A program made the position numbers and the translations under genes. A stretch of DNA of 64,000 bases from Enterobacteria phage GEC-3S: the sequence record HE978309; one strand, 5' to 3'. The notes below the pieces were generated by a model. That model did not search any database. It worked only from the letters and a program-made list of their open reading frames with translations, and was not told where the DNA came from. Shown here in pieces: positions 29,874 to 34,538 of this stretch. How positions within the stretch are numbered: position 1 is the first letter of the stretch; every line of letters begins with the position of its first letter.

Positions 29874-30197
29874 TTAACCGTAAACTACCACAATATTCTG
29901 TTTGTGCGTTACAGTCCATTTCAGGTCGATCTCTTCTTCCTTCTTAACGCCGTTAATAACGTCTGGATGAGGAACTTTATTCATCTTTCCGTGTGGCAGT
30001 AGAACAGTTTTACCCAGCAATTCTTTATCTACAGTTTCACCAATATCAATAATCTTACCTACCAGCGGAATCTCGCCCATAGTGCGCTTTTGCTCAATAA
30101 TGATCCCCATAGAGCTTTTTACTTCGGTCCCTGCGCTTTCTGCTTTAGCTTCGATAATTACATAATCACCAAGTGCTTTAGGAGTTTTAACGGTCAT
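29874..30197 (-). CDS. 31: Co-chaperonin gp31 (GroES-like)
   Basis: 107 aa; GEYVI/GDYVII, SGLIIG-like, VPHP motifs shared with T4 gp31; T4 position. Confidence 0.7.
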   Translation of the reverse strand: MTVKTPKALGDYVIIEAKAESAGTEVKSSMGIIIEQKRTMGEIPLVGKIIDIGETVDKELLGKTVLLPHGKMNKVPHPDVINGVKKEEEIDLKWTVTHKQNIVVVYG

Positions 30198-30238: not shown

Positions 30239-30553
30239 TTATTTATAAATTTCGACGATCTGTGCTGGAGTCAGCCCGTCTACATTAATCAGACTATCAA
30301 GCCCAAAACTACGGAAACCTTCAACTGCAATTTCATATACGGGCAAAGATGTTTCTGATTCTTTACGCGGTTTTTCTACATTAGGAACTAACCACTTTTC
30401 GTATGTTTCAAACGGCATCAGTGCCGGATCTCGCGTGGCGATCATCTCGCGGACAGTACCATCTTTCTTAGTAAACTGCAAAGAGTGAGTACCGACCGAA
30501 AACATTTTCTTTAGTGCTTCACGAATTGCGATATTATCAATTTGTTCAGTCAT
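30239..30553 (-). CDS. Hypothetical protein (104 aa)
   Basis: ORF; ATG at 30553 (ORF-track start at 30559 is TTG). Confidence 0.5.
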   Translation of the reverse strand: MTEQIDNIAIREALKKMFSVGTHSLQFTKKDGTVREMIATRDPALMPFETYEKWLVPNVEKPRKESETSLPVYEIAVEGFRSFGLDSLINVDGLTPAQIVEIYK

Positions 30554-31277: not shown

Positions 31278-32155
31278 TAAAAGTCTCCGTAGTTAACCTG
31301 AAAACATTCTACACCAATTGCGCGGTACATGTCAACCACTTGATCACGGTCATCTACTGCCAACACAACATGATAACGCGGTGCAATTTCAGAGAAGAAA
31401 ATCTCTTTCTTCACTTCATGGTCAGGACGACGATCATTAGTTTCACGTTGAAAGTGATCACTAGGTTCAATACCCTGTTCACGCAGCCATTGCAGAGTAT
31501 CTTCTTCGCAAACATCCTCACGCCCTGAGCATGTAATGATACGATAACCATTATCACGATACAGTTTAAGCATTTCGATCACTTGCGGACGCGGTTTATC
31601 TTCTTTGACCTTTGTCCAGTCAAACGGATGACGACCGCCCTTATCCGCTAATGTCCCATCAATATCAAAGATCACTGCTTTCGGCAGCATGGTATTCGGT
31701 TTGTATACTTCTTGACCCATATATTCCTGCATCAGATAAAATTGGTTGCGCAAATGAGAAAGTGGAATTGCTTTCTCTCCGCGATAGAAATTACGTTTCT
31801 TTAGTGTCTCAAATGATTCATTGAACACTTGTTCAGTATACACCGCGTTAAATTCTTTTGCAAGTTTTTTGTAGAATACACGATGTTTTTCTTTCAGGTT
31901 AGTATCAGAGATAATGATACTTAATCCGCGTGATAGAGTCTCACGAGCAATCATTCTCTGAATAGACTCTACCAGCTTTTCTTTTTCCTTAGTATACTTG
32001 TATTTCAAATGTGAGTCAACACCAAACAACATAAGACGAAGGTCATCACGATTCACATTACGATAATTACTAAACCGTTTACATGTCTCCATAGCCCATG
32101 TAGTTTTACCGGACCCAGAACAACCAACGGTTAAAATCACTTCACATTTCGGCAT
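31277..32155 (-). CDS. pseT: Polynucleotide 5'-kinase / 3'-phosphatase
   Basis: P-loop GCSGSGKTT and HAD motif DIDGTL in same order as T4 Pnk; ATG at 32155 with AAGGAG. Confidence 0.9.
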   Translation of the reverse strand: MPKCEVILTVGCSGSGKTTWAMETCKRFSNYRNVNRDDLRLMLFGVDSHLKYKYTKEKEKLVESIQRMIARETLSRGLSIIISDTNLKEKHRVFYKKLAKEFNAVYTEQVFNESFETLKKRNFYRGEKAIPLSHLRNQFYLMQEYMGQEVYKPNTMLPKAVIFDIDGTLADKGGRHPFDWTKVKEDKPRPQVIEMLKLYRDNGYRIITCSGREDVCEEDTLQWLREQGIEPSDHFQRETNDRRPDHEVKKEIFFSEIAPRYHVVLAVDDRDQVVDMYRAIGVECFQVNYGDF

Positions 32156-32607
32156 TATTTCTCCTTCGGTTTGCACCGTTCCTCATTAAGTTCTTTGCGA
32201 TAATAACACATGATCAACTTACTTTCAAGTGTATATCTCTTAATATCCGCAAGCCAGACTCTGAATTTTTGGGAGTCCTCCCACGACATAGAAACTCTAG
32301 GTTTACCGTCTATTGTATCCACTTTCAGGTCAATGTCAACTTTTTCTATTGGTGCTGGTAGTGGAGGATGTAATTTCGGTTCTTGTGAATAATGGTCCAT
32401 TGTACACGAAGAAAGCACAAATACAATAGGCACAGCGAAGACATGGATTATGGAGGTCTGAAAATTCTTGTGTACTTTCTTAAACATCCAGTGTATCACG
32501 AAAATTGAAAACACCATCAGAATAATAATGCTTGCACCTATCCACAAATAATCAACCAGATTAAAATTGCTTATCTGCTCTTGCGTAGGCAATATTTCTA
32601 TGCTCAT
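32155..32607 (-). CDS. o-spanin candidate (lipobox, Pro-rich); N-terminal extent uncertain
   Basis: Lipoprotein signal MFKKVHKNFQTSIIHVFAVPIVFVLSSC then PPLPAP; full ORF has AAGGAGG RBS and ATGA coupling at 32607; possible internal start at 32487. Confidence 0.5.
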   Translation of the reverse strand: MSIEILPTQEQISNFNLVDYLWIGASIIILMVFSIFVIHWMFKKVHKNFQTSIIHVFAVPIVFVLSSCTMDHYSQEPKLHPPLPAPIEKVDIDLKVDTIDGKPRVSMSWEDSQKFRVWLADIKRYTLESKLIMCYYRKELNEERCKPKEK

Positions 32608-32927
32608 TTAGTAGCCTCCTTTAATTCTTCGGTAAACTCCTTAAATGAGTCATTAAGCTGTTTCTCTACCAACTTGGGTTTTTGTGCTACTACATAGCCT
32701 CGTGTAGCGTCTTTCATTGCTTTGTTTTGTTCTTCTGCAAACTTAGTTCTTATTCCGTACATCTCCTTTTGCAGCGAGTCTACAATCTTCATCTTTTCAT
32801 CTGTCTTTTTCTTATACTCTGTAAATTCCTGATTCAGTCGATCTACCTCCTTTTTATTTTCCCACCACATATTTCCACCTACCCCCAGCAACACAGAGAT
32901 GATAACAATGTATATCAGCTTTGACAT
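32604..32927 (-). CDS. i-spanin candidate (N-terminal TM plus coiled coil)
   Basis: MSKLIYIVIISVLLGVGG TM segment followed by charged coiled-coil region; next to lipoprotein ORF and pseT as T4 pseT.3/pseT.2. Confidence 0.55.
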   Translation of the reverse strand: MSKLIYIVIISVLLGVGGNMWWENKKEVDRLNQEFTEYKKKTDEKMKIVDSLQKEMYGIRTKFAEEQNKAMKDATRGYVVAQKPKLVEKQLNDSFKEFTEELKEATK

Positions 32928-32940
32928 ATTACCCCCAACG

Positions 32941-32970
32941 ACAAAAGGCGGGGAACTAGCCCCGCTTATT
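32941..32970 (-). terminator. Hairpin terminator after rnlA
   Basis: GGCGGGG-AACTAG-CCCCGC; U-run on minus transcript. Confidence 0.55.
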
Positions 32971-32971
32971 A

Positions 32972-34141
32972 TTACCAATCAATCTTATCTGCCGGAATCA
33001 GTTTCTTATAATTCCGTAGATAGTAAGTTTTCATTGAATCCAGAATACGGTCATAATCAAGACCATCGAATGCAATCATCAGACACATGAAAATATATGC
33101 TTGTGCATCACCATGTTTACGCGATTCGATAGTCGCATTGGATGCATATGTCTTTCTGTCTTCTCCCGCGTGTTCGTTATAAAACTCTGTTGCTGTCGTA
33201 AAGGCATTGCGAAGAATAGACCTGAATGCTTCCTCGAATAACTCGATTCGTTCCAGTGCTTCCGGTTCGCCTTCATATGCAGCACGCAAATCATCGGTTT
33301 CGCTTTCTACGACATAGTAGATCAGGTTATTAGGAAACATCGATGTGTTTTTAATGTTATGCACACCAATATACCATTCACTCTTCACTTTGAACAGTTG
33401 ACCGTCTTTAGTGCGTGCAACAATTCCTTCGATACCTTCTGCGGTCCGAACTTCATCAAGAATATTGCTAAAACGCGCTGAATCAACCTGTAACGCATTT
33501 ACCAGATGAGGACGTAGGATTGAATCGGCGAATAGCATTTGATGCGGTACATACTCTCCTGTGACGTTATGGCGTACATTCAGAAGTGTTAGCGACGGTT
33601 CAGAATATTCTACAACAATTCGGTTGCTGGGTGCTGTATATTCAAAGTTGAAAGTATAATCAGACCCAATATCGGCGATCTTAGCGCGTAGATCCGCATA
33701 CTTCTCGGAATACAGAAGACCGTTTGCTCTCTCTGCCTGGCTTGAGTATAAGGCCGCTTTAGACTTCAACTGAACATAGCCGTTATCAATGTATGTGCTT
33801 ACTAGACTACCGTCCATTTTGTCCATGACCATTTCCACATCTTCCGGCTTAAAGCGAGCGCGATCATTCTCACCTAAATTAAAAAACTTCTCCATAGGAC
33901 GAGATGCAATGCGGACCGGACTACCTTTATCGTCAATTTCAAACATGATCCCGCGACACTCTAACGCATCTGGTTTATTCCACATTTCCGGTTTGCTCAA
34001 GTACAGATAACTAAAAATGCGCATACGGGTTTGCATCGCCGTAATTTCATCTTTGTAATAGAACGTATCAGATCCGTCACATAGTGCCATCAGATTTTTG
34101 AACAATGCTAAAACTTTTTTGTTGTTTTCTTTTGTTGACAT
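32972..34141 (-). CDS. rnlA: RNA ligase 1
   Basis: Aligns with T4 Rnl1 (LF.NLM.LC; PDALECRGIMFE; VRIASRPMEKFFNL; KMDGSLVSTY KxDG). Confidence 0.85.
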   Translation of the reverse strand: MSTKENNKKVLALFKNLMALCDGSDTFYYKDEITAMQTRMRIFSYLYLSKPEMWNKPDALECRGIMFEIDDKGSPVRIASRPMEKFFNLGENDRARFKPEDVEMVMDKMDGSLVSTYIDNGYVQLKSKAALYSSQAERANGLLYSEKYADLRAKIADIGSDYTFNFEYTAPSNRIVVEYSEPSLTLLNVRHNVTGEYVPHQMLFADSILRPHLVNALQVDSARFSNILDEVRTAEGIEGIVARTKDGQLFKVKSEWYIGVHNIKNTSMFPNNLIYYVVESETDDLRAAYEGEPEALERIELFEEAFRSILRNAFTTATEFYNEHAGEDRKTYASNATIESRKHGDAQAYIFMCLMIAFDGLDYDRILDSMKTYYLRNYKKLIPADKIDW

Positions 34142-34538
34142 AATTTGTGTTCCATTCTGGTTTAAATTTGGTGATCAAAACAGGTTCTTCGATATCGGCA
34201 GTGCTTATAATATCCTTACCCGTTGGATTCTCAATATATAACTCAAAGCACTGGCGGTAATAGAATGTTACTGTCTTACCTTCCTCTAGCGCCTTATGAA
34301 TATTCTTACTCTTGCGAGTATCCGCTGTTGGTGTTTGTCTGTTAATGCTAGTCCGGTAATAATTGATCCGCTTTCTGAGATTGACAGTCTGACCAATGTA
34401 TACCAGTTCATTATCAACCGCAATAGCGTAAAGAACATTTAAACGGTTCTTCTGAGGCGGTAGAATAACGTCACCATCTTTACACTCTAAACATGAATAT
34501 TTAACGAATCCATAGTTTTCTATTAGCTCATTAATCAT
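34077..34538 (-). CDS. GIY-YIG endonuclease-like protein
   Basis: LYAIAVDNELVYIGQTVNLRKR matches GIY-x10-YIG...R pattern; 3' end overlaps rnlA start by 65 nt. Confidence 0.6.
   Translation of the reverse strand: MINELIENYGFVKYSCLECKDGDVILPPQKNRLNVLYAIAVDNELVYIGQTVNLRKRINYYRTSINRQTPTADTRKSKNIHKALEEGKTVTFYYRQCFELYIENPTGKDIISTADIEEPVLITKFKPEWNTNYVNKRKQQKSFSIVQKSDGTM

Follow-up and report, generated by a model that had tools for sequence, protein, structure and literature searches.

Here we examine the spanin genes of Enterobacteria phage GEC-3S (sequence record HE978309), taking as the window the whole stretch of 64,000 nt that was analysed. Spanins carry out the last step of lysis by phages of Gram-negative bacteria, and o-spanins are defined by an N-terminal lipoprotein signal. 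By homology and gene order, the two open reading frames (ORFs) at 32155-32927 on the minus strand are the translationally coupled i-spanin PseT.3 and o-spanin PseT.2, the latter encoded as a precursor of 150 aa in which the lipoprotein signal stands behind an N-terminal extension with a membrane helix of its own. We propose, with a probability of roughly 0.6, that this extension is real and that an N-out/C-out hairpin would place the lipobox for processing at Cys68, yielding an 83-aa o-spanin of the T4 type. The clade that shares the extension breaks the positional rule for lipoproteins in a conserved and selected manner.

An earlier reading of this DNA, made from its sequence alone (hereafter the sequence-only reading), had offered two alternatives for the o-spanin gene, an internal start at 32487 or an unusual N-terminal extension; selection in a single reading frame, the retention of the coupled start with its Shine-Dalgarno (SD) sequence and the lack of conservation of codon 41 favour the second and speak against the first. 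Homologues were gathered by protein search and their DNA was then compared, giving six lineages, namely the window and five from metagenomes, with protein identities of 60-94%. The metagenomic lineages show 60-80% protein identity, with nucleotide identity in the extension down to 42%, and share the same synteny, an ORF of 151-155 aa and the same architecture. Across codons 2-40 in the annotated frame the proportion of synonymous differences (pS) is near saturation at 0.46-0.95, while that of nonsynonymous differences (pN) is 0.05-0.48, corresponding to pN/pS ratios of 0.06-0.65; the comparison of L009 with L010, for example, contains 20.5 synonymous and 4.5 nonsynonymous differences (binomial p=1.5e-10). 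Read in either of the other two frames, the same codons give ratios of roughly 0.65-2.3 and hold 2-6 stop codons in every lineage. Length differences within the extension are whole codons (+1, +5), and residues P7, F15-N16-L17, G24 and M31 are invariant across the lineages. Judged by this pattern of selection, the extension is translated.

The signals for initiation at the upstream ATG are equally well kept. Its SD sequence forms a duplex with the anti-SD of -11.6 kcal/mol (dG) in the window and of -8.2 to -11.7 kcal/mol in the five other lineages, and a strong SD together with the ATGA overlap is found in all six lineages with the extension. The 150-aa ORF with an ATGA-coupled start and an AAGGAGG site described by the sequence-only reading is present, on the minus strand. 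The overlap also sets pseT.2 directly beside its cognate i-spanin gene, as in all relatives. The same -4 overlap occurs in the closest relative lacking the extension (L013), and the relevant entries of SpaninDB record it for the T4-family phages JS10, JS98, JSE, PG7, Phi1, RB14, RB32, RB49, RB51 and RB69 and for RB16/RB43 of the KP27 family (PMC6139136). Its presence in the clade, in L013 and in T4-family phages therefore marks the upstream ATG as the ancestral start of the o-spanin.

Codon 41, by comparison, has no SD complementarity upstream of it in any lineage (dG of +0.5 to +2.7 kcal/mol, and -3.3 in L004, where the upstream start of the lineages has -8 to -12), and a consensus scan revealed no promoter ahead of it. 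The codon is ATG in the window, Phi1, JEP8, kvi, RB49, L008, L009 and L010 (four of the six lineages), TTG in JSE, and ATT and ATA in L004 and L006, respectively, which are more distant lineages. In the two latter the mature domain is strongly constrained (dN/dS 0.1-0.2), and the o-spanin must therefore be made there from the upstream ATG. These observations bear on a dual-start arrangement, which we regard as unlikely, in which the coupled ATG would give the 150-aa protein and codon 41 a canonical prolipoprotein of 110 aa supplying most of the functional o-spanin, with the long form serving as a regulatory or differently localised isoform by analogy with dual-start holin genes. Such an arrangement would account for the exact fit of the Met41 form to the PROSITE rule PS51257, which we take to demand a Cys at position 15-35 and a K or R among the first seven residues: counted from Met41 the Cys is residue 28 and residues 3-4 are Lys, whereas the full ORF has its Cys at position 68 and no K or R among its first seven residues. 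The shorter form thus agrees with the rule, and the full ORF departs from its positional part. The replacements at codon 41 are near-cognate starts, which would also be in keeping with a dual start; on the other hand, M, L and I are substitutions also expected at the end of a membrane helix, and in the dual starts of the lambda S107/S105 type two conserved in-frame starts both carry initiation signals, while here the second has no SD.

With regard to topology, the hydrophobic segments of PseT.2 are confined to aa 15-43, before the lipobox, and aa 49-71, at the lipobox; the C-terminal part has none. This agrees with the description in the sequence-only reading of a first hydrophobic segment followed by a lipoprotein signal and PPLPAP. 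The first transmembrane segment (TM1) reaches a Kyte-Doolittle maximum over 15 residues of 2.8 in the window and of 2.2-3.1 over the lineages, and its 19-residue sum on the Hessa scale (Hessa et al. 2005) is -2.5 in the window, with values from -0.1 to -2.9 in four other lineages. Set beside signal-anchor-release (SAR) helices, which are weakly hydrophobic, rich in Gly, Ala and Ser and able to leave the bilayer, TM1 is strongly hydrophobic, a point against a SAR domain, yet contains a conserved GxG. The tail in front of it carries a net charge of -1 to -2 in the other lineages, and the loop behind it is basic (+1 to +3) in four of the six lineages (the window and three of the five others) under automatic boundaries; in P0005 and P0006 basic residues (KK..K, R..R) lie just inside the helix boundaries. 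According to the positive-inside rule a basic loop of this kind should be cytoplasmic, so that the N-terminal tail and the C-terminal domain would both be periplasmic. The N-out/C-out arrangement predicted in this way is the only topology that would put the lipobox and the two conserved Cys of the mature domain in the periplasm.

The second segment (TM2) has the character of a lipoprotein signal. The sequence LSSC is preceded by SIIHVFAVPIVFV and KKVHK, and so conforms to the lipobox pattern [LVI][ASTVI][GAS]C with an h-region and a basic n-region. Neither L65 nor C68 varies; S66-S67 likewise show no variation in the clade, and only slight variation when relatives without the extension are added. 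The Hessa sum of TM2 (aa 52-67) is +5.25, compared with +2.5 to +11 for the cleavable signals of the extension-less relatives, and its uncharged run of 17-20 residues compares with 9-16 in those signals. AlphaFold2 places helices at 17-44 and 47-67 with a two-residue turn between them, followed by a disordered linker (68-93) and a C-terminal domain composed of a beta-hairpin (94-107, with strands at 94-99 and 102-107) and a helix (109-144), for which the pLDDT is 74-87. This layout broadly agrees with the beta/alpha organisation described for T4 PseT.2 (Kongari 2018, PMC6139136).

The remainder of the protein is recognisably that of the T4 family. The o-spanin profile phrog_812 (length 102) matches aa 53-150 at profile positions 2-101 (E=1.1e-32), and PseT.2 therefore exceeds the family by about 50 residues at its N-terminus; Pfam PF26831 'Phage_T4_Spanin' is found on all homologues. 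At +2 after Cys68 the window has Thr and the other lineages have either Thr or Ser; the lack of an Asp there is consistent with outer membrane sorting. C134 and C145 are invariant and are paired by alignment with the last two Cys of T4 PseT.2; we take their counterparts to be C87 and C98, in the numbering of Kongari 2018, which are essential for lysis in T4 PseT.2 (Kongari 2018, PMC6139136). Nothing was found that would contradict the envelope targeting of this ORF, on which the sequence-only reading depended.

Together these features suggest a course of events that we infer from the sequence. Translation from the ATGA-coupled ATG at 32607 would give the 150-aa precursor, in which TM1 would insert N-out and the loop KKVHK would remain cytoplasmic. 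The second, signal-peptide-like helix would then cross from inside to outside, oriented as an ordinary lipoprotein signal, and bring LSSC to the periplasmic face. Processing of the precursor at Cys68 by Lgt and LspA would release an 83-aa mature lipoprotein (Thr at +2) for transport to the outer membrane via Lol, where with the i-spanin it would disrupt the outer membrane at lysis as T4 PseT.2 does, and a two-helix hairpin of 67 residues would be left in the inner membrane.

Several points weigh against this proposal. We know of no characterised prolipoprotein with a lipobox after an N-terminal transmembrane hairpin, and acceptance of such a lipobox by Lgt and LspA is an assumption. Initiation from Met41 would create a textbook lipoprotein signal peptide of 27 residues, the codon is ATG in most lineages, and TTG, ATT and ATA being near-cognate starts, some internal initiation may occur. 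In the N-terminal tail pN/pS nears or passes 1 in the most distant pairs, where counts are small and synonymous sites saturated. The confidence of the AlphaFold2 model is modest (mean pLDDT 67.5, pTM 0.32, from an alignment of 10 sequences).

A further alternative, which we consider distinctly improbable, is that the full-length protein stays uncleaved in the inner membrane as a two-helix protein, perhaps lipidated at Cys68, with its o-spanin domain in the periplasm, acting either as a tethered pro-spanin with a later release step or as a negative regulator of the spanin complex. In its favour, the membrane anchor provided by TM1 is strong, the lipobox sits at residues 65-68, beyond the range of known lipoprotein signals, and the LP and FNL motifs of the tail are conserved more than hydrophobicity alone requires. 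However, the clade shows no departure from LSSC and Thr or Ser at +2, the hydrophobicity of TM2 is low, as in a cleavable signal, T4 PseT.2, whose site of action is the outer membrane, shares the mature domain and both essential Cys, and no second o-spanin was noted among the neighbouring genes of related contigs, the genome itself not having been searched for one. Finally, the possibility that the extension is an annotation artefact, 5' sequence left open by chance ahead of a gene starting at 32487, would bring PseT.2 into line with all other members of its family (92-115 aa, with signal peptides of 13-22 residues) but is hardly credible given purifying selection in one frame, no stop in six diverged lineages, indels in multiples of three, and SD and ATGA coupling kept upstream with neither an SD nor a conserved ATG internally. 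Frame-specific selection, a conserved upstream start and an unconserved codon 41 therefore lead us to reject an untranslated extension and to see in the internal start a minor contributor at most.

Should the precursor be processed as we propose, it might in addition be two proteins in one, LspA cleavage freeing both the o-spanin and a stable 67-residue hairpin with a selected function of its own. We hold this to be possible but doubtful, and it draws on analogy: the hairpin could tune spanin action or the timing of lysis, or could act on the envelope as colicin lysis signal peptides do. The conserved periplasmic tail (LP...FNL) hints at an interaction motif, and suggests that the piece removed may have its own function. 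If true, such a precursor would be the first natural lipobox processed after a transmembrane hairpin.

Concerning the origin of the extension, a profile search with diverse PseT.2 sequences gave 75 clusters, all of 92-115 aa except the extension clade (150-155 aa); in the members of 105-115 aa that were inspected, the added length consists of C-terminal tails and is not N-terminal. Among proteins without the extension, the closest relatives are 58-66% identical over the mature domain, and their signal peptides of 18-21 residues put the lipidated Cys at 19-22. When 1.84 billion representative proteins were searched with a profile of aa 1-67, only the clade itself was returned (2 representatives), and fusion with a free-standing gene was accordingly set aside. 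Tandem duplication of the signal peptide was likewise rejected, since Smith-Waterman comparison of the extension with its own signal and that of P0010 gave nothing above shuffled sequences (z -1.3 to +1.8); the sole resemblance, LWNGL (P0007) to IWRGL (P0010), is not significant. Searches of Pfam, NCBIfam and PHROGs for a family covering the extension produced only sub-threshold matches typical of hydrophobic sequence (DUF4131, LuxQ), no relative was found in the PDB by sequence, and Foldseek against BFVD returned only other o-spanins and lipoproteins. Being limited to one clade, without a homologue and with negative duplication tests, the extension is therefore, as far as these comparisons reach, a clade-specific innovation.

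Three other sequences were considered in this context. The 150-aa 'Rz1' of Shigella phage Sf25 (P0011), a Tequatrovirus, was among the Foldseek matches and at first sight resembled the extended proteins, but was rejected: in place of a transmembrane extension, this T4-type PseT.2 has an in-frame internal tandem duplication of 51 residues that creates two lipoboxes, and as the single sequence in its cluster it could be an assembly artefact or a real duplication. Alignments from tblastn that reach query residue 37-44 in Dhakavirus and Karamvirus were dismissed as read-through into the 3' end of pseT.3. A 108-aa variant on a metagenome contig of 3087 bp (P0009) keeps the extension, the signal and 16 mature residues and is fully divergent thereafter; it has the appearance of a Krischvirus pseT.2 that is frameshifted or chimeric.

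The gene and its oddity are already on record, flagged by curators without explanation. The SpaninDB entry for the JSE o-spanin gives 150 aa, with a mature part of 83 aa and a signal of 67 aa marked 'too long signal sequence', and the entries for RB49 and Phi1 also give 150 aa with 83 aa mature (PMC6139136 supplement). The main text of Kongari 2018 contains no discussion of the long signal, and a search of the literature on internal lipoboxes, spanin N-terminal extensions and RB49 spanins found nothing beyond the SpaninDB supplement; the comparative evidence for a real and selected extension, and its interpretation as a hairpin, were not on record before. Spanin and lipoprotein predictors will overlook pseT.2 or assign it a wrong start if they expect the Cys no further than about 35 residues from the start, and public records already disagree on the pair, several of them mis-starting the partner i-spanin. 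The clade also offers a natural test case for whether Lgt and LspA can process a lipobox behind a membrane hairpin. The features of the locus are collected in the table.

Table. Features of the spanin locus of GEC-3S, with positions in the window; topology and lipidation are predictions
Feature	Position	Strand	Remarks
SD sequence of pseT.3, GGGGG	32932..32936	-	4 nt upstream of ATG (32925-32927); same site marked in the SpaninDB entry for Phi1
pseT.3, i-spanin, 107 aa	32604..32927	-	phrog_739 'Rz-like spanin' match, E=2.1e-26
pseT.3, N-terminal transmembrane domain, aa 2-21	32865-32924	-	hydropathy segment aa 1-21
pseT.3, remainder, helical periplasmic domain	within 32604..32927	-	
SD sequence of pseT.2, AAGGAGG	32615..32621	-	7 nt upstream of ATG, within the 3' end of pseT.3
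ATGA overlap, pseT.3 TGA / pseT.2 ATG (translational coupling)	32604..32607	-	same -4 overlap in all related contigs
pseT.2, complete o-spanin precursor ORF including stop, 150 aa	32155..32607	-	150 aa also in the annotation of Phi1, JEP8, kvi, JSE and RB49
Acidic N-terminal tail, aa 1-20, MSIEILPTQEQISNFNLVDY	32548..32607	-	net -3, no Lys or Arg in the window; predicted periplasmic
TM1, aa 21-40, LWIGASIIILMVFSIFVIHW	32488..32547	-	strongly hydrophobic; predicted reverse (N-out) signal anchor
Internal in-frame ATG, codon 41	32485..32487	-	no SD, not conserved; SD dG +0.5 kcal/mol here
Basic loop, aa 41-51, MFKKVHKNFQT	32455..32487	-	net +3; n-region of lipoprotein signal; predicted cytoplasmic
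TM2, lipoprotein h-region (aa 52-64) and lipobox LSSC (aa 65-68)	32404..32454	-	lipobox at 32404-32415
Codon of Cys68	32404-32406	-	predicted to be lipidated
Mature o-spanin, 83 aa, Cys68-Lys150	32158..32406	-	phrog_812 match
Proline-rich HPPLPAP	32350-32370	-	
Conserved Cys134	32206-32208	-	
Conserved Cys145	32173-32175	-	
TAATG overlap, pseT.2 stop / pseT (polynucleotide kinase) start	32153..32157	-	agrees with the annotation of Phi1, JEP8, RB49 and JSE

The sequence-only reading had also proposed an i-spanin candidate with a transmembrane segment and a coiled coil, and this identification is borne out: PseT.3 has a hydrophobic segment at aa 1-21 followed by a helical domain and belongs to the phrog_739 family, and the SpaninDB entry for the RB49 i-spanin, likewise 107 aa, lists one coiled coil at 25-56 (supplement, Kongari 2018, PMC6139136). 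A 107-aa gene occupies the same position in all related contigs. In the annotations of RB49, JSE, JEP8 and kvi, pseT.3 has 88 aa, starting at Met20 and lacking the transmembrane domain; the annotation of Phi1 and every metagenome gene call give 107 aa, and the longer form is the one whose start has the GGGGG SD. The correction from 88 to 107 aa was also made by the SpaninDB curators, according to their supplementary entries (Kongari 2018).

The 3 kb around the spanin pair are 98-99% identical to 57 Krischvirus genomes, including RB49, Phi1, JSE and JEP8, and by this measure GEC-3S is a Krischvirus of the RB49/Phi1/JSE kind. Gene order on the minus strand is denA, rnlA (32972-34141), pseT.3, pseT.2, pseT (start 32155), cd.2 and cd; public Krischvirus records name pseT.3 and pseT.2 at the same position, and RB49, Phi1 and JSE are placed in T4 spanin families in the corresponding SpaninDB entries (Kongari 2018, PMC6139136). 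The longest rnlA ORF (389 aa, 32972-34141, minus strand) overlaps the 3' end of denA (34077-34538, minus strand) by 65 nt, and the rnlA start differs among public records and metagenome gene calls (354, 372, 389 or 394 aa).

Further observations concern transcription of the region. A terminator-like hairpin at 32948-32965 on the minus strand (GCGGGG, a 6-nt loop, CCCCGC, then CTTTTGT) lies directly 3' of the rnlA stop and just 20 nt ahead of the pseT.3 ATG, and L013, the relative without the extension, has a similar hairpin at the corresponding site (about 2153-2180). Either transcription must therefore read through the hairpin into the spanin genes, or the hairpin serves some other purpose. 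Within the coding region of pseT.2, at 32312-32339 on the minus strand and about 150 nt upstream of the pseT start, lies a near-consensus promoter of the sigma-70 type (TTGACA, 16 nt, TACAAT; 11 of 12 matches). All six diverged lineages retain the two hexamers, down to the synonymous positions of GTT-GAC and ACA-ATA, and the element may be a real pseT promoter embedded in the o-spanin gene. Elsewhere, a T4-type late-promoter motif (TATAAATA) is found at 30240-30247 on the minus strand, just upstream of the gene 31 ORF (29874-30197); across the whole window 7 copies were counted where 5.9 are expected, which does not exceed chance.

Among known systems, additions ahead of a normal signal peptide are found in the extended signal peptide region (ESPR) of autotransporters (PMC2805444), and about 24 o-spanins are noted as having a 'too long signal sequence' in the SpaninDB supplement (Kongari 2018, PMC6139136). 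In the SpaninDB examples examined, these signals have 33-48 residues with charged or hydrophilic n-regions and no added membrane helix, whereas that of PseT.2 has 67 residues in all and includes an autonomous hydrophobic helix. The pCloDF13 bacteriocin release protein (BRP) and the colicin A lysis protein are, like PseT.2, small lysis-related lipoproteins, and their LspA-released signal peptides persist in the inner membrane and are active (van der Wal 1994, 1995; Howard & Lindsay 1998, as cited in PMC5727409). These are, however, ordinary single-helix N-terminal signals without sequence relationship to the extension, and the likeness to a hairpin is one of analogy.

The unimolecular spanin gp11 of phage T1 also combines a lipobox and a transmembrane helix in one polypeptide, but its lipobox is N-terminal and its transmembrane domain C-terminal, and the mature protein spans the periplasm (PMC6139136). 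In PseT.2 the helix precedes the lipobox, so that cleavage would remove it, no C-terminal hydrophobic segment is found, and a separate i-spanin is present. The Rz/Rz1 pair of lambda shows no sequence homology to that of GEC-3S, Rz1 is embedded within Rz, and it has an ordinary short N-terminal lipoprotein signal.

The closest counterpart is the T4 pair PseT.3/PseT.2 (separated architecture; PHROG 739/812, PF26831), with which GEC-3S shares a homologous i-spanin and mature o-spanin domain, the HPxLP motif, the WEDSQ/FEDSQ...W...D..RY core, the two C-terminal Cys, the lipobox and Thr at +2, as well as the ATGA coupling and a location next to rnlA/pseT, away from holin and endolysin. The two differ in that T4 PseT.2 has 99 aa and a 16-residue signal peptide (lipidated Cys17), whereas PseT.2 of GEC-3S carries about 50 extra N-terminal residues with a full membrane helix; and in T4 pseT.3 is preceded by alc, and pseT.1 separates pseT.2 from pseT, alc and pseT.1 both being absent here, where rnlA abuts pseT.3 and pseT.2 abuts pseT. 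The T4 genes complement a lambda Rz/Rz1 defect (Kongari 2018, PMC6139136), and the same assay makes the extended system easy to test. The general picture of spanin action is unchanged by the extension, and PseT.2 of GEC-3S, compared in this way with its relatives, is a clade-specific variant of a known lysis system.

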